From assembly GCF_003018235.1 (NCBI RefSeq), contig NZ_CP027437.1: a DNA stretch of 64,000 bases. One strand, written 5' to 3'. Under the pieces are notes generated by a model that worked only from the letters and a program-made list of their open reading frames with translations, did not search any database and was not told where the DNA came from. This DNA comes from Escherichia coli. GTDB lineage: Bacteria; Pseudomonadota; Gammaproteobacteria; Enterobacterales; Enterobacteriaceae. The translations under genes were made by a program, and so were the position numbers. Below are positions 4,855-51,341 of the stretch, piece after piece (the first letter of the stretch is position 1; every line of letters begins with the position of its first letter).

Positions 4855-6507
<1,653 letters not shown>

Positions 6508-6526
6508 GTAAAAAAGTTAGAACGGC

Positions 6527-6558
6527 AACGCGTACCCTGGGTACGCGTTGTTTGTCTG
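6527..6558 (+). terminator. Stem-loop between pyrG and eno (partial terminator or processing site)
   Basis: aacgcgtac cctgg gtacgcgtt hairpin followed by gtttgtctgg; T-tract imperfect. Confidence 0.4.
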
Positions 6559-6579
6559 GAGTTTCAGTTTAACTAGTGA

Positions 6580-7893
<1,314 letters not shown>

Positions 7894-10128: not shown

Positions 10129-10400
10129 AGAGTTCCCCGCGCGAGCGGGGATAAACCGGCCGTCGCCGGATCAGCCTGGCTATGCCAGCAGAGTTCCCCG
10201 CGCCAGCGGGGATAAACCGGACGAACAAAATAAAAACCAACTGAATGATGCGAGTTCCCCGCGCCAGCGGGGATAAACCGCGAACCCTTGAACCGATAAG
10301 GGCGCTGTTTTGGAGTTCCCCGCGCCAGCGGGGATAAACCGGATAGGTGTTACACATATGACCTGGCACTGGCGAGTTTCCCGCGCCAGCGGGGATAACC
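10129..10400 (+). CRISPR. Type I-E-style CRISPR array, 5 repeats and 4 spacers
   Basis: 29-nt repeat gagttccccgcgccagcggggataaaccg at 10129 (variant cgcgag), 10190, 10251, 10312, plus degenerate terminal repeat at 10373-10400; four 32-nt spacers at 10158-10189, 10219-10250, 10280-10311, 10341-10372. Confidence 0.95.
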
Positions 10401-10447
10401 ATTCAGGTATGTTCAGGCCGGGCAGTTTCCCGCCCGGCCTTCCTCAC

Positions 10448-11925
10448 TTACGCATTCGACCAGCTCTGGATCGAATCCGCATTCCCCAATTCCCCATGCA
10501 TCACTTCATACGATTTTTTCAGGATTACATCAGTATGTTTGGTTAACTCCTTGAAAATGCTTTTATTCATCGCGTCGTAGCGTTTGGCACTGTTCTCAAC
10601 AGGCATAAAGATATCTTTCACGCGAACCATTTTGTCGACAGCCGTTGCGTAATCCGGGTATAGCCCCAGACCTACCGCCGTATTAATCGCTGCCCCCAGA
10701 CTTGCACAACCATTAATGGCGTTACGGCGTGCCGGAAGGTTGAACACGTCGGCAAAAATCTGCATAAACAGATCGCTGTTCGAACCGCCGCCAGTAATGA
10801 TCACATGCTTTGCAAAGTGATTCATTTCATTACACATATTGTCGTAATTGTTCTTCAGCGTCAGGCCACGCTTTCCAGTATCGAACGATATATCCATGCG
10901 TAATCCATGCTGGAATCAAAGCCAATCATAATCCCGCGTTTGTACGGTTCCCACGGATTGGTCAGCCAGTCCAGCACCGTCATCAGACCATTACAGCCTG
11001 GCGGCACACAAGACGCTTTTTTGTTGAGCAAATCTTCCGGTGAAAGATCCTGTGCTTTGGCATCCTGAATTAACGACTCGCCTAACATGTCGCGTAGCCA
11101 GCTCACCGTCCACATGCCTTTGCGAATACCGTAACCTTCATACAGCAAGGTTTGCGGAATAGAAGACATAATCGGCCAGTACGCTACCGGATCTTTCGGT
11201 AGTAATTTGCCGTTCATCATCAACGCGATGTAAGTGCCAAGAGAAATTACCGCAGTTTCATCATCCAGTAACCCGGCTCCCAGTGCTTCTACCGGTTTAT
11301 CACTGGTGGTACAAACAACCGGCAGCCCAGCCGGGAAATGTGTCGCCAGCGCGGCTTGAGGAGTGATATGCCCAAGAACAGTGCCCGGCATTTGCACATC
11401 AAACAGCATATGACGGGGGATATTAAACTTCTCCATGACTGCGGCATCTTCACTCCATGCCCAGGTCTTATAATCCACCGGCCACTGACCAAAATAGTTG
11501 GCGATATTGTCTTTAAACTCGCCGGTTAAGCGATGCGTCAGATAACCTGAAAAAGAGGTGACATATGCCACGTCAGGATTCGTATGTTCGTAAGGGCGTG
11601 TAACGCGTGCATCCTGCCAGCTAATCAACGGCGCAGCTGGCGTGCCATCGGCTTTCAATAACGCACGGCAGCAACGGATGGATCCCAGACCAATACCGAC
11701 AATATCTTCTTTATTCCCGGCAAACTGACTCATCAAATCGTGACCGGCAAAACATAATGATGCCCATAAATCGTCGTCAGGATGTTCTGCGGTATCGGCA
11801 TCTGGCGTGTGCATCGGCTGCAATAAGCCTTTGCCTTCGCAAACCACATTACCTTCCAGATCATACATCACCACTTTTGTGCTCTGACTTCCGCCATCAA
11901 TCCCTATGATGTATTTTTTCGACAT
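10448..11925 (-). pseudogene. ygcE: FGGY-family sugar kinase gene split by a frameshift (two ORFs overlapping at 10861-10897)
   Basis: N-terminal ORF 10861-11925 ends ...YRSILESVA*; the other frame continues ...LTLKNNYDNM... to 10448; restoring one C in the minus-strand run gtggcc-ctgacg rejoins them into a 492-codon frame. Confidence 0.7.
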
Positions 11926-23722: not shown

Positions 23723-25434
23723 TGAGCGAAAAACATCCAGGGCCTTCAGTGGTCGAAGGAAAACTGACAGACGCCGAGCGCATGAAGCTTGAAAGCAACT
23801 ACCTGCGCGGCACCATTGCGGAAGATTTAAACGACGGTCTGACCGGTGGTTTTAAGGGCGACAACTTCCTGCTGATCCGCTTCCACGGCATGTATCAGCA
23901 GGATGACCGCGACATCCGCGCCGAACGTGCTGAACAGAAGCTGGAGCCACGTCATGCAATGCTGTTGCGCTGTCGTCTGCCGGGTGGGGTGATTACCACC
24001 AAACAGTGGCAGGCGATCGATAAATTTGCCGGTGAAAACACCATCTATGGCAGCATTCGCCTGACCAACCGCCAGACGTTTCAGTTCCACGGCATTCTGA
24101 AAAAGAACGTCAAACCGGTGCACCAGATGCTGCACTCGGTCGGTCTTGATGCGCTGGCGACTGCTAACGACATGAACCGTAACGTGCTGTGCACTTCGAA
24201 CCCGTTCGAGTCGCAGCTGCACGCGGAAGCCTATGAATGGGCGAAGAAAATCTCTGAACATCTGCTGCCTCGTACCCGCGCGTATGCAGAGATCTGGCTC
24301 GATCAGGAAAAAGTCGCCACTACTGATGAAGAGCCGATCCTTGGTCAGACCTACCTGCCGCGTAAGTTCAAAACCACGGTAGTGATCCCGCCGCAGAACG
24401 ATATCGATCTGCACGCCAACGACATGAACTTCGTGGCGATCGCCGAAAACGGCAAGCTGGTGGGCTTTAACCTGCTGGTGGGCGGTGGGCTTTCCATCGA
24501 GCACGGCAACAAGAAAACCTACGCCCGCACCGCGAGTGAGTTTGGCTATCTGCCGCTGGAGCATACACTGGCAGTGGCGGAAGCCGTCGTGACAACTCAG
24601 CGTGACTGGGGTAACCGAACCGATCGTAAAAATGCCAAAACCAAATACACGCTGGAGCGCGTGGGGGTTGAGACGTTTAAAGCGGAAGTGGAGCGTCGCG
24701 CGGGGATCAAATTTGAACCGATCCGTCCGTATGAGTTCACCGGACGCGGCGATCGTATTGGTTGGGTTAAGGGCATTGATGATAACTGGCACCTGACGCT
24801 GTTTATCGAAAATGGTCGCATCCTTGATTATCCGGGGCGTCCGCTGAAAACTGGCCTGCTGGAGATCGCGAAGATCCACAAAGGTGATTTCCGCATTACG
24901 GCGAACCAGAATCTGATCATCGCCGGTGTGCCGGAAAGCGAGAAAGCGAAGATCGAGAAGATCGCCAAAGAGAGCGGGTTAATGAATGCCGTCACGCCGC
25001 AGCGTGAAAACTCAATGGCCTGCGTGTCATTCCCGACTTGCCCGCTGGCGATGGCCGAAGCCGAGCGTTTCCTGCCGTCTTTTATCGACAACATCGATAA
25101 TTTAATGGCGAAACATGGTGTCAGCGATGAGCATATCGTGATGCGTGTAACAGGCTGCCCGAACGGTTGTGGTCGCGCGATGCTGGCGGAAGTGGGCCTG
25201 GTGGGTAAAGCGCCGGGTCGCTACAACCTGCATCTTGGCGGCAACCGCATTGGGACACGTATCCCACGGATGTATAAAGAAAACATCACCGAGCCGGAAA
25301 TCCTGGCGTCGCTTGATGAACTGATAGGGCGCTGGGCGAAAGAGCGCGAAGCGGGTGAAGGCTTCGGCGACTTTACGGTGCGTGCGGGCATCATTCGCCC
25401 GGTGCTCGATCCGGCGCGCGATTTGTGGGATTAA
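23722..25434 (+). CDS. cysI: Sulfite reductase [NADPH] hemoprotein beta subunit
   Basis: 570-aa ORF; nitrite/sulfite reductase siroheme Fe-S family. Confidence 0.97.
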
Positions 25435-25450
25435 CCATCAGCCCGGTCTT

Positions 25451-25486
25451 GTAGGCCTGATAAGACGCGTGAGCGTCGCATCAGGC
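25451..25486. repeat. REP element between cysI and cysH
   Basis: gtaggcctgataagacgcgtgagcgtcgcatcaggc palindromic unit. Confidence 0.7.
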
Positions 25487-25507
25487 AAGGCAAACAGTGA
25501 GGAATCT

Positions 25508-26242
25508 ATGTCCAAACTCGATCTAAACGCCCTGAACGAACTGCCGAAGGTAGATCGCATTCTGGCGCTGGCAGAAACTAACGCCGAACTGGAAAAACTG
25601 GATGCTGAAGGCCGCGTTGCCTGGGCGCTGGATAATCTGCCCGGTGAATATGTACTTTCTTCCAGTTTCGGCATTCAGGCGGCGGTGAGCCTGCATCTGG
25701 TGAATCAGATTCACCCGGATATCCCGGTGATCCTGACCGATACGGGTTATCTGTTCCCGGAAACCTACCGCTTTATTGACGAGTTAACGGACAAACTCAA
25801 GCTCAACCTGAAAGTGTACCGCGCTACCGAAAGCGCCGCCTGGCAGGAAGCGCGCTACGGCAAACTGTGGGAGCAGGGTGTTGAAGGCATTGAAAAGTAC
25901 AATGACATCAACAAAGTCGAACCGATGAACCGGGCGCTGAAAGAACTGAATGCGCAAACGTGGTTTGCTGGCCTGCGCCGCGAACAATCCGGCAGTCGCG
26001 CCAATTTACCGGTGCTGGCAATTCAGCGTGGCGTATTTAAAGTGCTGCCGATTATCGACTGGGATAACCGAACGATATATCAGTATCTGCAAAAACATGG
26101 CCTGAAATATCACCCATTATGGGACGAAGGATATTTATCGGTCGGTGATACCCATACAACCCGTAAATGGGAACCCGGCATGGCGGAAGAAGAAACGCGT
26201 TTCTTTGGCTTAAAAAGAGAATGTGGTTTACACGAAGGGTAA
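25508..26242 (+). CDS. cysH: Phosphoadenosine phosphosulfate (PAPS) reductase
   Basis: ORF 25355-26242; start set at [14 protein letters not shown] (244 aa); C-terminal ECGLH motif. Confidence 0.95.
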
Positions 26243-26260
26243 ATGTTATCCGGATAAATT

Positions 26261-26299
26261 AAACGCCTCTGTCAGAAATGATGGGGGCGTTTTTATTTT
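26261..26299 (+). terminator. Rho-independent terminator after cysH
   Basis: aaacgcc...ggcgttt stem followed by ttttatttt. Confidence 0.6.
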
Positions 26300-26409
26300 G
26301 CGAGCAGCATTCCTGATTTTAAACGTGAACGCCGCTGGAAGAATCAACAGGTATAGAATGGTGTCGGGTGCTTGAGGCTGTCTGGCGTTAAGCATTCGCG
26401 AGGTTCCAG

Positions 26410-26514
26410 ATGGACAAAAGCCCCAGGCGATATTTCTATCAACCTGAGGCCAGCGTTCGAACCCAAACAATTCGAATGTTAGTCTCTTCTTTGCAGGGAG
26501 GCAAGACATGCTGA
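26410..26514 (+). CDS. mok-like leader ORF overlapping the hok-like start (34 codons)
   Basis: ATG at 26410, stop TGA at 26512-26514 overlapping the downstream ATG (acATGcTGA); translation [34 protein letters not shown]. Confidence 0.4.
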
Positions 26515-26660
26515 CAAAATATGCCCTTGTGGCAATCATAGTGCTGTGTTTTACAGTACTGGGATTCACGCTGATGGTAGGCGACTCGTTGTGTGAGTTG
26601 AGTATCAGAGAACGTGGTATGGAGTTTAAGGCAGTTCTCGCTTACGAATCGAAGAAGTAG
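26508..26660 (+). CDS. Hok/Gef-family membrane toxin (type I toxin-antitoxin), 50 aa
   Basis: [50 protein letters not shown]: single TM helix plus conserved LCEL..R.G..E..A..AYES.K tail; below the ORF-track size cutoff. Confidence 0.8.
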
Positions 26661-26786
26661 CCACCACGCGGGGGTAAAACCCCGCGTACTGAATTGTTAA
26701 AGTTTGGCCTCCTGCACCCCTTTTTTATACTCTGTTTCTGGTGGCATTGATTTCCTGCAGGCAAGGGAGTAATCATTTCAAACCCA

Positions 26787-27824
26787 TCAAGACGCCTTCG
26801 CCAGCTCCTTCACCAGCGGTAGCATTATCCGCATAACATCACGGCAGCGACGTTCTATTCTTCCTGGAAGTGCCTTATCAATATGTTGTTGATTATCCAG
26901 TCTTACGTCATGCCAGCTATTTCCCGCAGGGAATGCAGCTGTTTTTGCGCGTTGCTGATAACCATCCTTATTCCCAAGATTCCAATTTGTTGCTTCTACC
27001 GAAAGTACGGCAATACCGGCTTTGTCGAAAACTTCGGCGTCATTACAACAGCCAGTACCCTTCGGATAATTTTTATTCAAACCCGGATTGGTCGTTGCGG
27101 CAATTCCATGACTACGCGCAATTGCCAGCGCCCTGTCGCGCGTTAATTTCCTTACTGCTTCAGGGGTTTTTACGCCGCTGTTGAAATACAATTTATCGCC
27201 AACAATTAAGTTATCGAGATTAATCACCAGCAGCGTATTTTTCTTTTCGGTGTCACTCATCCGCTTGAGTAAATTCTCAGCACCTAATTTCCCTTCCTCT
27301 TCACCACTGGTCGCCACAAATCGAATACCATACTCGGTAGGCGTATTTTTCAGGCGTTCTGCCAATTCCAGCATGACACCTAAACCTGCAGCGTTATCAT
27401 CCATTCCTTGTAACGTCAGTCCGCCGAGATTGGCATCGGCGTCAGCATCGCTCAGCGGGGCGTAAGTATCCAGATGCGCCATAATGATGATCTGCTGCGG
27501 CGCTTTGCCTTCATGAGCGGCAATCACCGTACTTCCCGTCACGTTATGCCAGCTCTTGCGATTATCGCGGGCGGTATAAATATACCGACTATTAAATGTC
27601 CGAATATCACTGCGATAACCCATTTGCTGAAACTGTTGGCGAATATAATCGGCAGATAACATTTCTGCTGGAGTTCCGGTCATGCGTCCCGGAAAGAAAG
27701 TAGCAATATGTCGTGCCTGAGTATTAGCAAAATCGCCAGGTTTAGATGACGAGGCGTGTACGGGGAGAATAAAGCATACGCCGAGCGCCAGGGCAGCGGT
27801 ACGGTGGCGCAATGCGGAAAACAT
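26787..27824 (-). CDS. iap: Alkaline phosphatase isozyme conversion aminopeptidase
   Basis: 345-aa ORF with signal peptide; M28 peptidase family; convergent with cysH. Confidence 0.9.
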   Translation of the reverse strand: MFSALRHRTAALALGVCFILPVHASSSKPGDFANTQARHIATFFPGRMTGTPAEMLSADYIRQQFQQMGYRSDIRTFNSRYIYTARDNRKSWHNVTGSTVIAAHEGKAPQQIIIMAHLDTYAPLSDADADANLGGLTLQGMDDNAAGLGVMLELAERLKNTPTEYGIRFVATSGEEEGKLGAENLLKRMSDTEKKNTLLVINLDNLIVGDKLYFNSGVKTPEAVRKLTRDRALAIARSHGIAATTNPGLNKNYPKGTGCCNDAEVFDKAGIAVLSVEATNWNLGNKDGYQQRAKTAAFPAGNSWHDVRLDNQQHIDKALPGRIERRCRDVMRIMLPLVKELAKAS

Positions 27825-34150: not shown

Positions 34151-35512
<1,362 letters not shown>

Positions 35513-35651
35513 AACGTGAGGAAATACCTGGATTTTTCCTGGTTATTTTGCCGCAGGTCAGCGTATCGTGAACATCTTTTCCAGTGTTCAGTATGGTGCC
35601 TTGCACGGTAATTATGTCACTGGTTATTAACCAATTTTTCCTGGGGGATAA

Positions 35652-36791
35652 ATGAGCGCGGGAAGCCCAAAATTCACCGTTCGCCGCATTGCGGCTTTGT
35701 CACTGGTTTCGCTATGGCTGGCAGGCTGTTCTGACACTTCAAATCCACCGGCACCGGTCAGCTCCGTTAATGGCAATGCGCCTGCAAATACCAATTCTGG
35801 TATGTTGATTACGCCGCCGCCGAAAATGGGGACGACGTCTACAGCGCAGCAACCGCAAATTCAGCCGGTACAGCAGCCACAAATTCAGGCTACTCAACAA
35901 CCGCAAATCCAGCCAGTACAGCCAGTAGCTCAGCAGCCGGTACAGATGGAAAACGGACGCATCGTCTATAACCGTCAGTATGGGAACATTCCGAAAGGCA
36001 GTTATAGCGGCAGTACCTATACCGTGAAAAAAGGCGACACACTTTTCTATATCGCCTGGATTACTGGCAACGATTTCCGTGACCTTGCTCAGCGCAACAA
36101 TATTCAGGCACCATACGCGCTGAACGTCGGTCAGACCTTACAGGTGGGGAATGCTTCCGGTACTCCAATCACTGGCGGAAATGCCATTACTCAGGCCGAC
36201 GCAGCAGAGCAAGGAGTTGTGATCAAGCCTGCACAAAATTCCACCGTTGCTGTTGCTTCGCAACCGACAATTACGTATTCTGAGTCTTCGGGTGAACAGA
36301 GTGCTAACAAAATGTTGCCGAACAACAAGCCAACTGCGACCACGGTCACAGCGCCTGTAACGGTACCAACAGCAAGCACAACCGAGCCGACTGTCAGCAG
36401 TACATCAACCAGTACGCCTATCTCCACCTGGCGCTGGCCGACTGAGGGCAAAGTGATCGAAACCTTTGGCGCTTCTGAGGGGGGCAACAAGGGGATTGAT
36501 ATCGCAGGCAGCAAAGGACAGGCAATTATCGCGACCGCAGATGGCCGCGTTGTTTATGCCGGTAACGCGCTGCGCGGCTACGGTAATCTGATTATCATCA
36601 AACATAATGATGATTACCTGAGTGCCTACGCCCATAACGACACAATGCTGGTCCGGGAACAACAAGAAGTGAAGGCGGGGCAAAAAATAGCAACCATGGG
36701 TAGCACCGGAACCAGTTCAACACGCTTGCATTTTGAAATTCGTTACAAGGGGAAATCCGTAAACCCGCTGCGTTATTTGCCGCAGCGATAA
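35652..36791 (+). CDS. nlpD: Murein hydrolase activator lipoprotein NlpD (LysM plus M23 domains); the rpoS promoter is expected inside its 3' half
   Basis: 379-aa ORF with lipobox LAGCS, Q/P-rich repeats, LysM and C-terminal M23 peptidase-like domain. Confidence 0.95.
35851..35940 (+). repeat. In-frame tandem repeats encoding QQPQIQ(P/A)V units within nlpD
   Basis: Three to four imperfect ~24-nt direct repeats (cagcaaccgcaaattcagccggta ...). Confidence 0.8.
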
Positions 36792-36853
36792 ATCGGCGGA
36801 ACCAGGCTTTTGCTTGAATGTTCCGTCAAGGGATCACGGGTAGGAGCCACCTT

Positions 36854-37846
36854 ATGAGTCAGAATACGCTGAAAGTTCATGATTTAAATGAAGATGCGGA
36901 ATTTGATGAGAACGGAGTTGAGGTTTTTGACGAAAAGGCCTTAGTAGAAGAGGAACCCAGTGATAACGATTTGGCCGAAGAGGAACTGTTATCGCAGGGA
37001 GCCACACAGCGTGTGCTGGACGCGACTCAGCTTTACCTTGGTGAGATTGGTTATTCACCACTGTTAACGGCCGAAGAAGAAGTTTATTTTGCGCGTCGCG
37101 CACTGCGTGGAGATGTTGCCTCCCGCCGCCGGATGATCGAGAGTAACTTGCGTCTGGTGGTAAAAATTGCCCGCCGTTATGGCAATCGTGGTCTGGCGTT
37201 GCTGGACCTGATCGAAGAGGGCAACCTGGGGCTGATCCGCGCGGTAGAGAAGTTTGACCCGGAACGTGGTTTCCGCTTCTCAACATACGCAACCTGGTGG
37301 ATTCGCCAGACGATCGAACGGGCGATTATGAACCAAACCCGTACTATTCGTTTGCCTATTCACATCGTAAAGGAGCTGAACGTTTACCTGCGAACCGCAC
37401 GCGAGTTGTCCCATAAACTGGACCACGAACCAAGTGCGGAAGAGATCGCAGAGCAACTGGATAAGCCAGTTGATGACGTCAGCCGTATGCTTCGTCTTAA
37501 CGAGCGCATTACCTCGGTAGACACCCCGCTGGGTGGTGATTCCGAAAAAGCGTTGCTGGACATCCTGGCCGATGAAAAAGAGAACGGTCCGGAAGATACC
37601 ACGCAAGATGACGATATGAAGCAGAGCATCGTCAAATGGCTGTTCGAGCTGAACGCCAAACAGCGTGAAGTACTGGCACGTCGATTCGGTTTGCTGGGGT
37701 ACGAAGCGGCAACACTGGAAGATGTAGGTCGTGAAATTGGCCTCACCCGTGAACGTGTTCGCCAGATTCAGGTTGAAGGCCTGCGCCGTTTGCGCGAAAT
37801 CCTGCAAACGCAGGGGCTGAATATCGAAGCGCTGTTCCGCGAGTAA
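36854..37846 (+). CDS. rpoS: RNA polymerase sigma factor RpoS (sigma-38)
   Basis: ORF 36818-37846; start set at [17 protein letters not shown] (330 aa); codon 33 is GAG (Glu) at 36950-36952. Confidence 0.97.
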
Positions 37847-37861
37847 GTAAGCATCTGTCAG

Positions 37862-37898
37862 AAAGGCCAGTCTCAAGCGAGGCTGGCCTTTTTCTTTT
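37862..37898 (+). terminator. rpoS rho-independent terminator
   Basis: aaaggccagtctc aagc gaggctggccttt stem followed by tttcttttg. Confidence 0.85.
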
Positions 37899-37965
37899 GG
37901 TTGGGGAGCCGGTGTGTTTGTGGGCTGGATAAGCCGCAATAGCGTCTCATCCGGCAATTTGCACC

Positions 37966-38373
37966 CTATGTGTTCATCATCTTGCGCACTAGCTGCATAA
38001 ACAGCTCCTGCTCTTCTCCACTCAAACGCCCCAAAAATTCCTCATCCACGCTGTCACCTATCGGTATCGCCGCAGCAAGTATCTTTTCGCCTTCGGCAGT
38101 CAGCCAGACAAAGCGTCGCCGCTTGTCAGCGGCGTCATGTTCACGTCTGACTAAGCCACGATTTTCCATTCTTGCCAACATTTCTGCCAGCGTTGCTTTG
38201 GTGCTGACGGCTGCTTCCATCAGTGCCACCTGTTCGATACCAGGTTTATCAGCAATGGCGCGCATCACCGCGTACTGTGGTTTGGTCAGATCAGGTAACT
38301 CGTGCTGCCAGCGGGCCGTGTGTTGCTGAAAAAGCTGTCGTAACTGATGGAACGCTTTATTTCGTAACGCCAT
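37966..38373 (-). CDS. MarR/SlyA-family transcriptional regulator
   Basis: 135-aa ORF with winged-helix MarR-like region; divergent from the decarboxylase operon. Confidence 0.8.
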   Translation of the reverse strand: MALRNKAFHQLRQLFQQHTARWQHELPDLTKPQYAVMRAIADKPGIEQVALMEAAVSTKATLAEMLARMENRGLVRREHDAADKRRRFVWLTAEGEKILAAAIPIGDSVDEEFLGRLSGEEQELFMQLVRKMMNT

Positions 38374-38488
38374 GTAAACTCCGGGCTAATTCTCTGTCGC
38401 TATCATAGCGGTTTTTCAGTGACGAAGAAGATGTTGTTACTTTTCAATCCTTGCCGCTGTGGAAATGAAGGAGTATGTTAATAATAAC

Positions 38489-38502
38489 GTTCGTATACGA
38501 AC
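38489..38502. promoter_or_regulatory. Candidate operator: 14-bp perfect palindrome between the regulator and decarboxylase operon
   Basis: gttcgtatacgaac is its own reverse complement; 18 bp upstream of the UbiX-like start. Confidence 0.45.
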
Positions 38503-38519
38503 AATTAAGAGAGTAAGCA

Positions 38520-39113
38520 ATGAAACTGATCGTCGGGATGACAGGGGCTACCGGTGCGCCTCTTGGTGTGGCATTACTGCAAGCGCTGCGGGAGATGCCG
38601 AATGTCGAGACTCATCTGGTGATGTCGAAGTGGGCGAAAACCACTATTAAACTGGAAACGCCTTACAGCGCTCGCGATGTTGCCGCCCTCGCAGACTTCA
38701 GCCATAACCCGGCGGATCAGGCGGCGACTATCTCTTCCGGCTCCTTTCGTACCGACGGCATGATCGTTATTCCATGCAGTATGAAAACGCTCGCCGGTAT
38801 CCGCGCTGGTTACGCCGATGGCCTGGTGGGGCGCGCGGCGGACGTCGTGCTCAAAGAAGGCCGCAAACTGGTGCTGGTGCCGCGTGAAATGCCGCTTAGC
38901 ACAATCCATCTCGAAAATATGCTCGCACTTTCGCGCATGGGCGTGGCGATGGTGCCGCCGATGCCTGCCTTTTATAACCATCCCGAAACGGTAGATGACA
39001 TTGTCCACCACGTGGTAGCCCGCGTGCTGGATCAATTTGGCCTCGAACATCCTCACGCCAGGCGCTGGCAAGGATTGCCGCAGGCCCGGAATTTTTCTCA
39101 GGAGAATGAATAA
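38520..39113 (+). CDS. ecdB: UbiX-like flavin prenyltransferase (Pad1 / decarboxylase B subunit)
   Basis: 197-aa ORF MKLIVGMTGATGAPLGVALLQAL...; symbol from memory of O157-type annotation. Confidence 0.85.
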   Translation: MKLIVGMTGATGAPLGVALLQALREMPNVETHLVMSKWAKTTIKLETPYSARDVAALADFSHNPADQAATISSGSFRTDGMIVIPCSMKTLAGIRAGYADGLVGRAADVVLKEGRKLVLVPREMPLSTIHLENMLALSRMGVAMVPPMPAFYNHPETVDDIVHHVVARVLDQFGLEHPHARRWQGLPQARNFSQENE

Positions 39114-40540
39114 TGGCATTTGATGATTTACGCAGCTTTTTACAGGCGCTTGATGACCACGGCCAGTTACTGAAAATCAGCGAAGAGGTGAACGCGGAAC
39201 CGGATCTGGCAGCCGCAGCCAACGCCACCGGGCGTATCGGCGACGGCGCGCCCGCGCTTTGGTTTGATAATATTCGCGGCTTTATCGATGCCCGCGTGGC
39301 AATGAACACCATCGGTTCCTGGCAGAACCACGCGATTTCCCTCGGCCTGCCGCCAAACACCCCGGTTAAAAAACAGATTGATGAGTTTATCCGCCGCTGG
39401 GATAACTTCCCCATTACCCCGGAGCGCCGCGCTAATCCAGCCTGGGCGCAGAACACCGTCGATGGCGACGAGATCAACCTGTTCGATATTCTGCCGCTGT
39501 TTCGTTTAAACGACGGTGATGGCGGTTTCTATCTCGATAAAGCGTGCGTGGTTTCCCGCGATCCGCTCGACCCGGATAACTTCGGCAAGCAGAACGTCGG
39601 CATCTACCGCATGGAAGTGAAGGGCAAACGTAAGCTCGGCCTGCAACCGGTGCCGATGCACGATATCGCTCTGCATCTGCATAAAGCGGAAGAACGCGGT
39701 GAAGATCTGCCGATTGCCATCACCCTGGGTAACGATCCGATCATCACCCTGATGGGCGCCACGCCGCTGAAATACGATCAGTCTGAGTACGAAATGGCGG
39801 GCGCGCTGCGCGAAAGCCCGTACCCGATCGCCACCGCCCCGCTGACCGGTTTTGATGTGCCGTGGGGCTCGGAAGTGATCCTCGAAGGGGTTATCGAAAG
39901 TCGTAAACGTGAGATTGAAGGGCCGTTCGGTGAGTTTACCGGCCACTACTCCGGCGGGCGTAACATGACCGTGGTGCGTATCGATAAAGTCTCTTACCGT
40001 ACCAAACCGATTTTCGAATCGCTCTATCTTGGTATGCCGTGGACCGAAATCGACTACCTGATGGGGCCTGCCACCTGCGTGCCGCTGTATCAGCAACTGA
40101 AAGCCGAGTTCCCGGAAGTGCAGGCGGTAAACGCCATGTACACCCACGGCCTGTTGGCGATTATCTCCACCAAAAAACGCTACGGCGGCTTTGCCCGCGC
40201 GGTGGGCCTGCGTGCAATGACCACGCCGCACGGTCTGGGCTACGTGAAGATGGTGATTATGGTCGATGAAGACGTTGATCCGTTCAACCTGCCGCAGGTG
40301 ATGTGGGCGCTCTCCTCGAAAGTGAACCCGGCAGGCGACCTGGTGCAGTTGCCAAATATGTCCGTGCTGGAACTCGACCCTGGCTCAAGCCCGGCGGGGA
40401 TCACCGACAAGCTGATTATCGACGCCACCACGCCTGTCGCCCCGGACAACCGTGGTCACTACAGCCAGCCGGTGGTGGATTTACCGGAAACCAAAGCCTG
40501 GGCTGAAAAACTGACCGCTATGCTGGCCGCACGTAAATAA
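39113..40540 (+). CDS. ecdC: UbiD-family (prFMN-dependent) aromatic acid decarboxylase, C subunit
   Basis: 475-aa ORF, UbiD family; start overlaps the UbiX-like stop; symbol from memory. Confidence 0.85.
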   Translation: MAFDDLRSFLQALDDHGQLLKISEEVNAEPDLAAAANATGRIGDGAPALWFDNIRGFIDARVAMNTIGSWQNHAISLGLPPNTPVKKQIDEFIRRWDNFPITPERRANPAWAQNTVDGDEINLFDILPLFRLNDGDGGFYLDKACVVSRDPLDPDNFGKQNVGIYRMEVKGKRKLGLQPVPMHDIALHLHKAEERGEDLPIAITLGNDPIITLMGATPLKYDQSEYEMAGALRESPYPIATAPLTGFDVPWGSEVILEGVIESRKREIEGPFGEFTGHYSGGRNMTVVRIDKVSYRTKPIFESLYLGMPWTEIDYLMGPATCVPLYQQLKAEFPEVQAVNAMYTHGLLAIISTKKRYGGFARAVGLRAMTTPHGLGYVKMVIMVDEDVDPFNLPQVMWALSSKVNPAGDLVQLPNMSVLELDPGSSPAGITDKLIIDATTPVAPDNRGHYSQPVVDLPETKAWAEKLTAMLAARK

Positions 40541-40550
40541 GGAGAACAAG

Positions 40551-40787
40551 ATGATTTGTCCACGTTGTGCCGATGAACAGATTGAAGTGATGGCGAAATC
40601 GCCGGTAAAAGATGTCTGGACGGTCTACCAGTGCCAGCATTGCCTCTATACCTGGCGCGATACCGAACCGCTACGCCGCACCAGCCGCGAACATTATCCC
40701 GAAGCGTTCCGCATGACGCAGAAAGATATTGATGACGCGCCGATGGTGCCGAGCATCCCGCCGCTGCTGGCGGAAGGTAAGCGCTAA
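40551..40787 (+). CDS. ecdD: Decarboxylase small subunit D (Cys-rich, zinc-ribbon-like)
   Basis: 78-aa ORF MICPRCADEQ...CQHC; typical third gene of bsdBCD/kpdBCD-type operons; symbol from memory. Confidence 0.75.
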   Translation: MICPRCADEQIEVMAKSPVKDVWTVYQCQHCLYTWRDTEPLRRTSREHYPEAFRMTQKDIDDAPMVPSIPPLLAEGKR

Positions 40788-40790
40788 ATA

Positions 40791-40818
40791 AAAAGTCCGA
40801 TGCCCATCGGACCTTTTT
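40791..40818. terminator. Bidirectional terminator between the decarboxylase operon and convergent ygbN
   Basis: aaaa gtccgatg ccc atcggac ctttttatt: hairpin flanked by A- and T-runs. Confidence 0.7.
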
Positions 40819-40825
40819 ATTAAGG

Positions 40826-42190
40826 TCAAATTACCGCCCATACGCACCAGGTAATTAAGAATCCGGTAAAACCGAGAATGGTCGTTAACACTGTCCAGGT
40901 TTTCAGACCGTCTGCTACCGACAACCCCAGATATTTGGTCACAATCCAGAACCCTGAGTCATTAATATGTGACGCGCCAAGCCCACCAAAGCAGGCTGCC
41001 AGCGTCACCAATACGCACTGAATCGGATTCAATCCCATCACCGCTTCTGAGAGTAACCCGCCGGTTGTCAGGATTGCTACGGTTGCTGACCCCTGCGATG
41101 CACGCAGCGCCAGTGAAATAATAAATGCGGCTGGTAACAGAGGCAGGTCAATCATTTGTAGCATGTTGGCAAGGGCTTTGCCGACGCCCGATTCCACCAG
41201 CACTTTGCCAAATACCCCTCCAGCACCAGTAACCAAAATCACTACCGCCGCAGTGGGAAGGGCTGAGCCCATAATGTCGCTGGTGTGTTGTAAGCTCCAG
41301 CCGCGACGTAAAGCCAATAACCAGAATGCCAGCACCAGCGCAATCATTAGAGCTACCATTGGTGAGCCGATCAGCTGTAGCGTACCAAGCAGGGGATGCG
41401 AAGGCGGCATCAGTGTTGCGGAAACCGTACCCGCCATGATAATCGCGATAGGAATAACAATTAGCGAGGTGACCAGCGCGACGCCCGGTGGATTTATTTT
41501 ATCGCTTAATTTTGTCGCGCCTTCCTCACTGGCCGGAGCCAGTTGCATCTGTTCCAGTACTTCCACCGACATCGCATATTGGCGCTTATTGATTATTTTC
41601 GCTGCAAAGTAGCCAACAATCCCTACTGGAATAGAAATCGCAATACCGATGATGGTTAGCCAGCCGATGTCTGCGTGGAGTAACCCCGCTGCGGCGACAG
41701 GGCCTGGATGCGGCGGTACCGCCACATGAACAGTTAGCATGATTCCAGCGACAGGCAGGCCAAATTTGAGTGGCGATATTTTGGCAACCTTGGCAAAACC
41801 GTAAATGATTGGCGCAAGAATAATAAAGCCGACATCAAAGAAGACGGGAATACCGAGGAAGAACGCTGCCAGAGTCAGCGCAGCGATAGTTCGTTTGTCA
41901 CCTAACTTGCGACTGAAATAATTAGCCAGTGACTCTGCACCACCAGAGTGTTCGATCATACGCCCCAGCATAGCACCCAGACCAATAATAATAGTGACGG
42001 AACCAAGCACACCGCCCATCCCGGCGATCATCACTTTACCCACTTCGCCCGCTGGTATACCCGCCGCAAGTGCGACTAACAGGCTGACGAGGAGCAGAGC
42101 AACGAATGGTTGTACCTTTGCCTTGATGACCAGCAGCAACAGCATGATTACGCCAGTTAACGCAATGCATAACAATGTAATTGTGGACAT
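40826..42190 (-). CDS. ygbN: GntP-family permease (putative acid-sugar transporter)
   Basis: 454-aa polytopic membrane ORF; synteny with ygbM-ygbI. Confidence 0.88.
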   Translation of the reverse strand: MSTITLLCIALTGVIMLLLLVIKAKVQPFVALLLVSLLVALAAGIPAGEVGKVMIAGMGGVLGSVTIIIGLGAMLGRMIEHSGGAESLANYFSRKLGDKRTIAALTLAAFFLGIPVFFDVGFIILAPIIYGFAKVAKISPLKFGLPVAGIMLTVHVAVPPHPGPVAAAGLLHADIGWLTIIGIAISIPVGIVGYFAAKIINKRQYAMSVEVLEQMQLAPASEEGATKLSDKINPPGVALVTSLIVIPIAIIMAGTVSATLMPPSHPLLGTLQLIGSPMVALMIALVLAFWLLALRRGWSLQHTSDIMGSALPTAAVVILVTGAGGVFGKVLVESGVGKALANMLQMIDLPLLPAAFIISLALRASQGSATVAILTTGGLLSEAVMGLNPIQCVLVTLAACFGGLGASHINDSGFWIVTKYLGLSVADGLKTWTVLTTILGFTGFLITWCVWAVI

Positions 42191-42278
42191 GGGAAACCCT
42201 GTCTGAAAGTTATAGTTAACCTACCCCATCCGTAGATGGGGGGATGTATGGGTACGTTGTAATTAGGGATTTAACGAA

Positions 42279-43055
42279 TTAGCGCCAGGCGTCAAACCAG
42301 CCAAGCCCTTCTTCGGTGAGGCCACGAGGTTTATATTCACAACCGATCCAGCCCTGATATCCCACCTCATCGAACAGGCGGAACAGCCACGGATAGTTGA
42401 TTTCTCCATCGTCCGGTTCATGTCGATCAGGTAGTCCGGCAATTTGTACGTGCGCATATTTCCCGGCGTAGTCGCGGATTAAATGCGTCAGGTTGCCATC
42501 TACTTTTTGCGCATGAAAAGTATCTAGTTGAATAAACACGTTATCTCGCGCAACTTCTTCAACAATAGCCAGTGCCTGATACTGGCTGGAGAAGAGATAA
42601 TGAGGCTTAACGCCGGGGCTGAGTGCTTCAACTAATATTCGCTTGCCGTGTGGCGCAAAGCGGTCGGCAGCGTAGCGGAGATTATCGATAAATACTGCCC
42701 TGTACCGTTCAGCATCTTCGCCAGCGGGCACGACGCCTGCCATCACATGGACTTGTTCACAATTGAGCGCCAATGCATATTCCAGTGCCAGGTCGATGTC
42801 TGCGTGTGCTTCGTGCTCACGTCCGGGAAGGGCGGATAATCCCCATTCCCCCGCATTAATATCTCCGGGAGCGGTATTGAACAGCGCCAGTGTCAGATGG
42901 TTTTGCTCCAGTTGCTTTTGGATTTGCAGGGTGGAGTAGTCATAGGGAAACAGAAATTCCACAGCATCGAACCCGGCTTTTCGCGCTGCGGCGAAGCGTT
43001 CAATAAAAGGCACTTCGGTGAACATCATGGATAAATTAGCTGCAAAACGAGGCAT
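42279..43055 (-). CDS. otnI: 2-oxo-tetronate isomerase (hydroxypyruvate isomerase family)
   Basis: 258-aa ORF; xylose-isomerase-like TIM barrel; former ygbM. Confidence 0.85.
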
Positions 43056-50868: not shown

Positions 50869-51297
50869 TTACGCTTTGGTGGCAATCAGGATGGCTGATG
50901 CTTTGATCAATGCAATAACGCGCGAGCCAGTGGTGAGTTTCATTTCATCCTGACTTTCATTTGTTACCACTGCCACAATTTCAAAACCCGCATCCGTTTT
51001 GATATGGACAGTGGCGTTCACTGCGCCTTCGGTGATTGTCGACACGCTGCCAGCAAACTGGTTGCGAGCAGAGAATTTTAGTCCACAGTCTTCCGTTGCC
51101 AGCGTTACCCACGGGGCTTTAATCAGGGCAATCGCTTCTTTCCCTTTCGCCAGACCCAGCGCTTGCTGGCTGCTGTGAGTCACAATTGCCACCAGCTTTG
51201 CACCACCTGCCAGCGTCAGTTCTACTTCATCATTCACAGCGCCCATTGCTACTGCGCTAACTGTTCCGGTTAATTGATTTCTTGCTGAAACTGCCAT
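50869..51297 (-). CDS. Di-Mop (tandem TOBE) molybdate/tungstate-binding protein, molbindin
   Basis: ORF 50869-51336; start set at MAVSARNQLTG with RBS aaggagg (142 aa); two ~70-aa halves each beginning SARNQ(L/F)(T/A)G...V. Confidence 0.8.
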   Translation of the reverse strand: MAVSARNQLTGTVSAVAMGAVNDEVELTLAGGAKLVAIVTHSSQQALGLAKGKEAIALIKAPWVTLATEDCGLKFSARNQFAGSVSTITEGAVNATVHIKTDAGFEIVAVVTNESQDEMKLTTGSRVIALIKASAILIATKA

Positions 51298-51341
51298 ACT
51301 GCCTCCTTTCATTGAATGTTGATCGAGTATAACCACATCTG

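Follow-up and report, generated by a model that had tools for sequence, protein, structure and literature searches.

What does a four-gene cassette absent from K-12 do between rpoS and ygbN in this Escherichia coli genome, and was it inserted there as an island? In the window, by which we mean the whole 64,000-nucleotide stretch of DNA analysed, a regulator gene and three decarboxylase subunit genes (B, C and D) occupy this interval. We are confident in identifying it as the E. coli operon for non-oxidative hydroxyarylic acid decarboxylase (HAD) that HosA regulates, ancestral beside rpoS in Enterobacteriaceae. Its genes and boundaries are as follows.

36854-37846, plus strand: rpoS, left neighbour of the cassette (RpoS model, 604.6 bits)
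37860..37893, plus strand: rpoS intrinsic terminator from a terminator scan, with 13-nt stem arms plus a T run
37894..40786, no strand: DNA absent from K-12 (the cassette polymorphism), about 2,893 bp, from junction alignments
37922..37958, minus strand: extragenic REP-like palindrome, flanked by the rpoS terminator and the hosA end, GCCGGATGAGACGCTATTGCGGCTTATCCAGCC on the minus strand
37966..38373, minus strand: hosA, MarR-family repressor of the operon, 135 aa, matching PDB 8AGA
38520..39113, plus strand: subunit B, 197 aa, UbiX/Pad1-type flavin prenyltransferase making prenylated FMN (prFMN)
39113..40540, plus strand: subunit C, 475 aa, reversible decarboxylase of the UbiD family that depends on prenylated FMN
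40551..40787, plus strand: subunit D, 78 aa, zinc-ribbon subunit with a proline-rich tail
40785..40822, no strand: bidirectional terminator hairpin (GC core 40795-40812) serving D and the convergent ygbN
40826-42190, minus strand: ygbN, right neighbour (GntP-family model PRK09821, 827.5 bits)

An ORF check of the window found all four cassette reading frames intact and on the strands given in an earlier sequence-only reading, and the four-gene set that it placed between the rpoS terminator and ygbN is borne out by family matches far beyond chance. The regulator is indeed a MarR-family protein encoded divergently (minus strand) from the operon. B, C and D are adjacent, co-oriented plus-strand genes; the start codon of C overlaps the stop codon of B (ATAATGG, an overlap of 1 nt) and the gap between C and D is 10 nt. 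In alignments with K-12, B2-type and O157 sequences, the rpoS terminator (inverted repeat 37862-37874 / 37879-37891) is the last left-side sequence in common with K-12. Where the window has the 2,893 bp, K-12 carries 8 bp, CTGTGCAC, and its rpoS-ygbN spacer is only 93 bp, in agreement with the sequence-only reading that ygbN directly follows rpoS in K-12. On the right, the hairpin at 40785..40822 also exists in K-12 as the ygbN terminator; the cassette end formerly placed at 40822 is the end of this terminator common to D and ygbN. The palindrome at 37922..37958 was named after the REP consensus, and the REP-core pattern also matches three further intergenic sites in the window.

Family calls for the three subunits were made with the NCBI curated cut-offs of NCBIfam VdcB, VdcC and VdcD, and all three exceed these curated models of the three-subunit B-C-D non-oxidative hydroxyarylic acid decarboxylase: B scores 311.8 bits (cut-off 290), C 788.9 bits (cut-off 650, E 1e-237) and D 121.2 bits (cut-off 30). 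Together with the PDB matches, these scores uphold the description of B as UbiX-like, of C as a member of the UbiD family and of D as small and Cys-rich. The margin of B over the VdcB cut-off is modest, and the BagM/FevK model scores B higher (340.1) yet under its own cut-off of 420. Residues S15, E49, R122, K129, R139, E140, Y169 and W200 of P. aeruginosa UbiX, which act in the FMN/DMAP site, have as counterparts in B T11, E46, R105, K112, R122, E123, Y152 and W183, respectively. The Thr at the position of S15 is also found in A. niger PAD1 (PDB 6QLG), and 195 of the 197 residues of B are identical to PDB 1SBZ, the crystallised Pad1 of E. coli O157:H7.

Subunit C matches ShVdcC (PDB 7AE4) at E 3.5e-160. 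Residues His345 and Tyr377 align with the substrate-positioning His349 and Tyr381 of ShVdcC, and the E-R-E motif consists of Arg166, Glu269 and Glu274, the last aligning with the catalytic Glu278. The candidate metal-ligand residues Asn161, His183 and Glu225 are also present and presumably equate to the Mn2+ ligands of Fdc1. C thus has the UbiD active-site residues whose lack had been named as grounds for doubt. Subunit D contains two CxxC knuckles (Cys3, Cys6, Cys28 and Cys31) and matches chain a of 7AE4, ShdD, at E 3e-11; the four matching cysteines of ShVdcD bind zinc (PMC8379154). By analogy, D would bind and activate C. The same C-plus-D architecture and E-R-E motif occur in VdcCD/ShdCD of Sedimentibacter hydroxybenzoicus (structure 7AE4) and BsdBCD of Bacillus subtilis. 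There D, a zinc ribbon with four cysteines, is needed for activity, and 4-hydroxybenzoate and vanillate serve as substrates. These Firmicutes systems are distant, with another genomic context and other regulation, and their D has diverged far beyond C, as the two E values for 7AE4 illustrate.

B and C fall into the superfamilies of UbiX and UbiD of the ubiquinone pathway, with the same folds and prFMN chemistry; structures of UbiD from E. coli match C at E 1e-46, and B passes general UbiX subfamily models (ubiX_pad TIGR00421, 248.5 bits, cut-off 108.9; NF004685, 257.9 bits, cut-off 188) and may well feed prFMN to UbiD too. It is nevertheless highly improbable that B and C are a spare UbiX/UbiD pair acting on 3-polyprenyl-4-hydroxybenzoate. 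Against the UbiD equivalog NF008175, C scores 173.5 bits, far short of the cut-off of 788, and neither a D subunit nor a repressor that senses 4-hydroxybenzoate belongs to the ubiquinone pathway, whose unlinked genes serve a prenylated, membrane-bound substrate. The cassette is also dispensable, because 56% of complete E. coli genomes are without it.

AroY-type protocatechuate decarboxylases were considered as relatives of C and set aside, since they are not its closest solved relatives, ShVdcC being far closer. AroY is likewise a UbiD-family enzyme that needs a B-type prFMN synthase, and co-expressed B and D of Klebsiella and Enterobacter raise its activity, which would be in keeping with C acting on protocatechuate (AroY-type) or gallate (LpdBCD-type) instead of 4-hydroxybenzoate or vanillate. 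We give this very little credence. C passes the curated VdcC model, AroY structures give it E values of only 2e-27 to 1e-24, and the cognate regulator senses 4-hydroxybenzoate; D here is VdcD-type, whereas LpdD has no sequence similarity to VdcD (PMC8379154). AroY itself works without D, which can even harm it. The assignment as a VdcBCD-type decarboxylase of 4-hydroxybenzoate is retained. The elements of the regulatory region are as follows.

38402..38407, minus strand: candidate -10 element for hosA transcription, minus-strand hexamer TATGAT
38451..38479, plus strand: candidate B-C-D promoter, proposed from conservation
38489..38502, no strand: HosA operator, the perfect 14-bp palindrome GTTCGTATACGAAC

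The regulator differs at 3 of 135 residues from the crystallised HosA of EPEC E2348/69 (132 identical to PDB 8AGA, 'Transcriptional regulator HosA', E 7e-84). It keeps all of the reported ligand-contact residues His9, Arg12, Phe15, His18, Lys31 and Asp110 (bioRxiv 10.1101/2024.04.24.590444). The HosA effector is 4-hydroxybenzoate, which is reported to free the UMN026 protein from DNA and to derepress the operon; by likeness to that protein, the allele in the window would be released in the same way. The operator occurs once in the window and is nearly invariant in an alignment of 14 Enterobacteriaceae taxa. The 14-mer and its flanks are contained in HosA probe T_H (supplement of Sci Adv 2018, PMC6261655), and the main text of that paper states that the probe DNA holds a 14-bp palindromic HosA site. 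With the promoter on one side and B on the other, it lies just downstream of the inferred transcription start and precedes the B start codon by 17 nt, a position that agrees with the published one and with 4-hydroxybenzoate-dependent derepression. The positions of both promoters are predictions. The B-C-D promoter would comprise a -35 element TTGCCG (38451-38456), a 17-nt spacer and a -10 element TATGTT (38474-38479), of which the TTG and the TA...T are invariant in the 14 taxa; it was absent from a simple promoter scan because it matches 8 of 12 consensus positions. In the same alignment, TATCATA is the only invariant block near the hosA start. An earlier report that HosA affects motility in EPEC suggests that its regulon may exceed the B-C-D operon.

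We propose that a HosA dimer on GTTCGTATACGAAC, just past the transcription start of the operon, would block RNA polymerase until 4-hydroxybenzoate, bound at the dimer interface, takes HosA off the DNA. B would then prenylate reduced FMN to prFMN, and C, a hexameric UbiD-type enzyme kept active by the zinc-ribbon subunit D, would decarboxylate 4-hydroxybenzoate to phenol in a reversible reaction that uses prFMN (with Mn2+). The sequence-only reading stated that the substrate cannot be told from sequence; here we depart from it, since 4-hydroxybenzoate appears assignable from the HosA effector and from C itself, whose orthologues in Klebsiella and Enterobacter are 96-97% identical to it. Vanillate is very probably converted likewise, to guaiacol. 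The operon is predicted to be active in the window strain. Because enzymes of the VdcCD type are sensitive to oxygen and difficult to activate in heterologous hosts (PMC8379154), it may function in vivo only under certain conditions.

Orthologues in these genera include KpdBCD of Klebsiella pneumoniae and the 4-hydroxybenzoate decarboxylase (EcdBCD) of Enterobacter cloacae, to which the conversion of 4-hydroxybenzoate to phenol is attributed; the activity has been characterised in both species, and strains with these genes form phenol. They occupy the same rpoS-linked position, with the B-C-D order and divergent MarR gene of the window. Among the Klebsiella and Enterobacter species sampled, protein identity to the window is 96-97% for C, 84-90% for B and 86-92% for D, whereas HosA is far more diverged (71-81%). 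A second operator-like site, CGT(A/G)TACGAAC, lies upstream of the -35 element in Klebsiella, Enterobacter, Kluyvera and Pseudocitrobacter and is degenerate in Escherichia. Closer still, the HosA-HAD operon of pathogenic E. coli (UMN026, EPEC E2348/69 and O157:H7) is the same locus, identical in gene order, operator and rpoS-adjacent position; its genes are named hosA/slyA-like, pad1, yclC and yclD. The cassette is thus present in O157, as had been suggested, although O157 is without the ygbI-ygbN cluster that follows D in the window. The operon goes by the names pad1-yclC-yclD, kpdBCD and ecdBCD and is related to vdcBCD, bsdBCD and shdBCD.

Independently broken copies of the cassette are found elsewhere in the species: B is frameshifted in E. 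coli DFL.5 and WP4-S18-ESBL-09, C has an internal stop in an O145 strain and an IS3 in Z1323MEC0002, and CFIAFB20140388 has a large deletion. These frameshifted, interrupted or truncated copies indicate that selection on the cassette is not universal, and would fit decaying, functionless remnants. For the window strain this is most unlikely: its four frames are full length, every functional residue checked is intact and the operator is perfect. C is also under very strong purifying selection across genera, because its protein identity to Klebsiella, Enterobacter and Citrobacter orthologues is 96-98% at a DNA identity of 82-89%.

The mutS-rpoS interval is a documented polymorphic region (PMC4209514), as the sequence-only reading stated, and the window arrangement is 'pattern IV' of that study. 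Among 5,426 complete E. coli genomes, the cassette is present in 2,380 (about 44%), 1,592 of which have the D-ygbN junction seen in the window, while 1,944 have the bare K-12 junction and 1,040 a B2-type replacement. The cassette is accessory within the species: K-12-like lineages have lost it by deletion, and in phylogroup B2 other DNA has replaced it.

The word 'island' had been applied to the locus. It is a presence/absence cassette; the insertion that the word suggests does not stand. Presence and absence within one species could signal recent horizontal acquisition, as could a GC content of 56-59% against 51-53% in the flanks (weak evidence by itself) and an allelic divergence of 4-6% within E. 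coli against about 1% in the flanks, and a preprint has proposed acquisition from Shigella (bioRxiv 10.1101/2024.04.24.590444). We consider such an origin improbable. Of 80 loci sampled in other species, 51 have the cassette within the fetched rpoS flank; these represent more than ten genera, and most also contain mutS. The order rpoS-hosA-B-C-D followed by mutS is found in 39 of the 80 (counting four with pphB before mutS and three without B), and seven further loci have the same order with mutS beyond the reach of the fetched flank. Genera with the rpoS-adjacent cassette and mutS beyond include Citrobacter, Klebsiella, Enterobacter, Kluyvera, Leclercia, Kosakonia, Atlantibacter, Franconibacter and Mangrovibacter; in Salmonella and Phytobacter the cassette is inverted relative to rpoS. 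A tree of hosA and B groups Escherichia with Salmonella and Citrobacter (93.5% bootstrap), which fits vertical descent. No integrase or IS was found among the four cassette ORFs, the window has no tRNA, and the cassette boundaries are not bracketed by direct repeats. Because the gene order is common to most Enterobacteriaceae genera sampled, we conclude that the cassette is ancestral beside rpoS and that K-12-like lineages lost it. Allele exchange by homologous recombination is real, yet distinct from the insertion of an island.

Such exchange may have crossed genus boundaries. Across some 1.7 kb that span C and D, DNA identity between Escherichia and three Pseudocitrobacter genomes is 93-96%, whereas hosA, B, nlpD, rpoS, pphB and mutS around this patch are at a normal intergeneric distance (71-89%). 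Trees built from the two operon halves contradict each other, both with 100% bootstrap. On balance, we favour C-D recombination with Pseudocitrobacter, which would make the cassette a site of exchange between genera besides one of gene loss. The window allele is itself rare, with at least 99% identity in only about 30 of about 2,380 cassette genomes and 94-97% in the remainder, and its D gene is of an allele class unlike that of its closest relatives (95.4% to TUM14771).

The operon, regulator, effector, operator and presence/absence polymorphism are already published, as are structures for three of the four proteins or close relatives, so the locus adds little as a finding and its practical value is limited to annotation, in which a 'pattern IV' rpoS-mutS interval can serve as a non-B2, non-K-12 marker. 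The points worth keeping are the ancestral placement of the cassette beside rpoS, which corrects the reading 'horizontally acquired from Shigella', and the probable intergeneric C-D recombination with Pseudocitrobacter. If this recombination is real and unreported, decarboxylase genes beside mutS have been swapped across genus boundaries by homologous recombination, and the rare allele of the window would be one product of that exchange. The window strain should be able to turn 4-hydroxybenzoate into phenol, a capacity that would bear on the breakdown of parabens and plant phenolics and on phenol production in the gut.

The window is a stretch of E. coli chromosome with rlmD and relA at its left end and the hyc operon at its right; the complete genomes that match it best are 98–99% identical across 23–25 kb. 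As the sequence-only reading had proposed, four genes separate rpoS from ygbN, each an intact ORF on the strand assigned to it.

Features of the cassette (hosA and the B, C and D genes) and its neighbours
36854–37846, + strand: rpoS, left neighbour of the cassette
37966–38373, − strand: MarR-type gene (hosA), 135 residues, intact ORF
38520–39113, + strand: B gene (UbiX/Pad1-type flavin prenyltransferase), 197 residues, intact ORF
39113–40540, + strand: C gene (UbiD-family decarboxylase), 475 residues, intact ORF, its ATG overlapping the stop codon of B
40551–40787, + strand: D gene (zinc-ribbon subunit), 78 residues, intact ORF, 10 nt past C and preceded by an AGGAGA ribosome-binding site
40826–42190, − strand: ygbN, right neighbour of the cassette

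The adjacent rpoS (36854–37846, +) is full length (330 residues) with Glu at codon 33, the form common among natural isolates (Q33E relative to K-12; PMC3074542), and this sigma factor gene therefore looks functional.

The proposed operon of a UbiX-like protein, a UbiD-like protein and a small subunit was confirmed against the NCBIfam models for non-oxidative hydroxyarylic acid decarboxylases, all three products scoring above the curated cut-offs (B, 311.8 bits versus 290; C, 788.9 versus 650; D, 121.2 versus 30). By sequence, the MarR-family protein is HosA: 132 of its 135 residues are identical to PDB entry 8AGA (‘Transcriptional regulator HosA’ of EPEC E2348/69), and His9, Arg12, Phe15, His18, Lys31 and Asp110, which are reported to surround bound 4-hydroxybenzoate (bioRxiv 10.1101/2024.04.24.590444), are all retained. 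The HosA allele of the window has M52, I98 and G119. B differs from the crystallized O157:H7 Pad1 (PDB entry 1SBZ) at two of 197 residues and retains the residues corresponding to the active site of P. aeruginosa UbiX. C aligns with the structure of Sedimentibacter VdcC/ShdC (PDB entry 7AE4) at an E value of 3.5e-160. Its E-R-E motif consists of R166, E269 and E274, the last aligned with the catalytic E278 of ShVdcC; H345 and Y377 are equivalent to H349 and Y381 of ShVdcC, and the candidate metal-ligand residues N161/H183/E225 are present. D aligns with ShdD and carries Cys3, Cys6, Cys28 and Cys31, which correspond to the four cysteines that coordinate zinc in the ribbon of ShVdcD; ShVdcD is an obligatory activating subunit (PMC8379154).

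Taken together, these features indicate that the locus encodes a decarboxylase inducible by 4-hydroxybenzoate. HosA would repress B-C-D until 4-hydroxybenzoate lifts the repression, B would make prenylated FMN, and a C hexamer decorated with D would yield phenol from 4-hydroxybenzoate and, very probably, guaiacol from vanillate. The assignment of 4-hydroxybenzoate as substrate is based on the effector of the regulator, on the 96–97% protein identity of C to orthologues from species of Klebsiella and Enterobacter, two genera in which the activity has been characterized, and on the poor match of C to other enzyme classes: it aligns weakly with AroY-type protocatechuate decarboxylases (E value 2e-27) and scores 173.5 bits against the UbiD equivalog model (cut-off 788). 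4-Hydroxybenzoate decarboxylase activity is described for Klebsiella and Enterobacter, as is phenol production by strains of these genera carrying the B-C-D genes.

The 146 bp spacer between hosA and B contains a single perfect 14 bp palindrome, GTTCGTATACGAAC (38489–38502), which occurs once in the whole window and, together with its flanks, also lies within the HosA probe of a 2018 study (Sci Adv 2018; PMC6261655). That study describes a HosA site, a 14 bp palindrome, from which the protein is released by 4-hydroxybenzoate (Kd ∼4.7 µM). Aligned across 14 Enterobacteriaceae taxa, the spacer shows a nearly invariant palindrome together with an invariant TTG (38451–38453) and TA...T (38474–38479), 17 nt apart; the latter two are candidate −35 and −10 elements of the operon promoter. 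A simple σ70 promoter scan of 37800–40900 listed no site; the placement instead follows conservation in the 14 taxa, and the candidate agrees with the consensus at only eight of 12 positions. The operator would then fall a few bases past the predicted transcription start of B-C-D, near 38486, consistent with the published description of the HosA site as a roadblock downstream of the start (bioRxiv 10.1101/2024.04.24.590444). Another palindrome, GTCGCTATCATAGCGGT (38396–38412), was considered as a second HosA site and rejected: across genera its TATCATA core alone is conserved (38401–38407, invariant in the 14 taxa), which better fits a −10 element, and this block is a candidate −10 of hosA on the opposite strand.

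A second operator-like sequence, CGT(A/G)TACGAAC, is found just upstream of the operon −35 in Klebsiella, Enterobacter, Kluyvera and Pseudocitrobacter (fetched loci L019, L037, L035 and L012, ∼5330–5360 in their own coordinates). The E. coli counterpart (window 38420–38450) is degenerate, so that Escherichia apparently has a single HosA site versus two in these relatives. An Rfam scan of 35000–42500 (E ≤ 0.1) gave nothing beyond a sub-threshold ctRNA match at the rpoS terminator hairpin (26.4 bits versus 50), which we judged to be due to chance.

In K-12, rpoS is followed directly by ygbN across a 93 bp spacer, in agreement with the sequence-only reading. Junction alignments place the DNA missing from K-12 at 37894–40786 (2,893 bp); the rpoS terminator flanks this segment on one side and the ygbN terminator, which is shared with D, on the other. 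We surveyed 5,426 complete E. coli genomes, scoring the cassette as present when at least 80% of it was found. It is present in 2,380, in 1,592 of which D adjoins ygbN as in the window; 1,944 genomes have the bare junction of K-12-like references, which lack the cassette, and 1,040 carry a replacement typical of B2 strains that encodes a flavodoxin and an MBL hydrolase. O157, named beforehand as an example of a carrier, does have the cassette, followed directly by pphB-mutS. The known polymorphism of the mutS-rpoS interval corresponds to the four ‘o454-nlpD patterns’ of PMC4209514: the site states observed are these four, and the window has pattern IV, the EPEC E2348/69 type. The same paper traces the 2.9 kb segment to work of 1999–2000. 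Both the observation and the interpretation of the sequence-only reading are thus upheld, the locus being the published HosA–HAD (hydroxyarylic acid decarboxylase) operon at the published polymorphic site, and since site and pattern are already in PMC4209514 the finding itself was known.

Inactivated cassettes occur in several other E. coli lineages (L007, 6675–7269; L092, 2407–3001; L093, 3001–4428; and the cassette matches H69 and H70). B is frameshifted in strains DFL.5 and WP4-S18-ESBL-09, C has an internal stop in O145 RM12275-C1 and an IS3 element in Z1323MEC0002, and CFIAFB20140388 has a large internal deletion. A TOBE-domain (molybdenum-pterin-binding-like) gene lies between ygbA and fhlA (50869–51336, −); this gene (c3292) is, according to PMC4209514, present in CFT073 and E2348/69 and not in MG1655 or EDL933, which adds another presence/absence polymorphism to the interval. 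Elsewhere in the window, the region between cysH (25355–26242) and iap (26787–27824), 26243–26786, contains no type I-E cas operon and no CRISPR array, its sole ORF being of the Hok/Gef type (26508–26660, 50 residues); strain TUM14771 has cas3-casABCDE at this position. An orphan I-E-type array (five repeats, 61 nt period) lies between queE and ygcE (10129–10406). ygcE itself (10448–11925, −; 492 residues in TUM14771) is split by a frameshift or sequencing error into ORFs of 354 and 149 residues in different frames.

Relatives of C were sought in one genome per species. Among the best 80 loci from other species, 39 show rpoS-hosA-(B)-C-D followed by mutS, and seven more share that order with no mutS within range; they come from genera such as Citrobacter, Klebsiella, Enterobacter, Kluyvera, Leclercia, Lelliottia, Kosakonia, Atlantibacter, Franconibacter and Mangrovibacter. 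The cassette is inverted in Salmonella and Phytobacter, and the copies of Pantoea, Rahnella and Erwinia lie away from rpoS. Hallmarks of an island were not found: there are no mobility genes among the four ORFs, no tRNA within the window and no direct repeats at the cassette boundaries, and the short direct-repeat families present are all internal and look like chance. In bootstrapped neighbour-joining trees, hosA+B groups Escherichia with Salmonella and Citrobacter (93.5%). The shared order across genera, the lack of island hallmarks and this grouping argue that the cassette has long resided between rpoS and mutS, and that K-12-like lineages lost it and B2 strains had it replaced; relative to most genera, the additional element in E. 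coli is the ygbI-ygbN cluster. The elevated GC content of the cassette (56–59%) does not outweigh this evidence for ancestral residence, and the conclusion of the preprint (bioRxiv 10.1101/2024.04.24.590444) that hosA was acquired from Shigella is not supported by the present data.

Twelve of the best 80 loci have hosA-C-D without B (L046, L055, L056, L065, L067, L072, L076, L077, L079, L081, L085 and L086), in Superficieibacter, Pluralibacter, Cedecea, Chimaeribacter, Siccibacter, Rouxiella, Mangrovibacter phragmitis and some Rahnella and Erwinia; these presumably rely on the housekeeping UbiX for cofactor.

The flanking genes of the window are ∼99% identical to other E. coli; the cassette (37894–40786) is 94–97% identical to most E. 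coli copies and at least 99% identical to those in ∼30 of ∼2,380 cassette-bearing complete genomes. Its D gene differs even from the closest relatives (95.4% identity to TUM14771 and 98.7% to ‘isolateA’); D belongs to another allele class than theirs, and the cassette is therefore a mosaic of allele classes. The B2-type replacement, unlike the cassette, is at least 99% identical in 1,042 of 1,043 genomes.

Three Pseudocitrobacter genomes carry a ∼1.7 kb patch of C and D (L008, L011 and L012, each 6001–7700, equivalent to window 39113–40787) with 93–96% DNA identity to E. coli. Their hosA (71%), B (81%), nlpD (80–83%), rpoS (89%), pphB (88%) and mutS (85–86%) show the divergence usual between genera. 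With hosA+B, Escherichia and Pseudocitrobacter are each monophyletic in 100% of replicates and never joined; in the separate C+D tree they form one clade in 100%, with neither monophyletic in more than 3.5%, and this clade is sister to Kluyvera in just 26.5% of bootstraps. Because the two trees conflict, each at 100% bootstrap, they point to homologous recombination between the two genera over the C-D patch; given the low support for the placement beside Kluyvera, the exchange could have run in either direction. L009, a whole 5,967 bp contig of a ‘Citrobacter sp.’ MAG, has the per-segment identity profile of the E. coli DFL.5 cassette, and its bin also contains a genuine Citrobacter-type copy (L016); L009 has probably been misbinned and belongs to E. 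coli.

A literature search found, within the literature covered, no paper tying Pseudocitrobacter to the cassette. What is mildly new here is confined to the family-wide ancestry of the linkage to rpoS and the intergeneric exchange of C and D.
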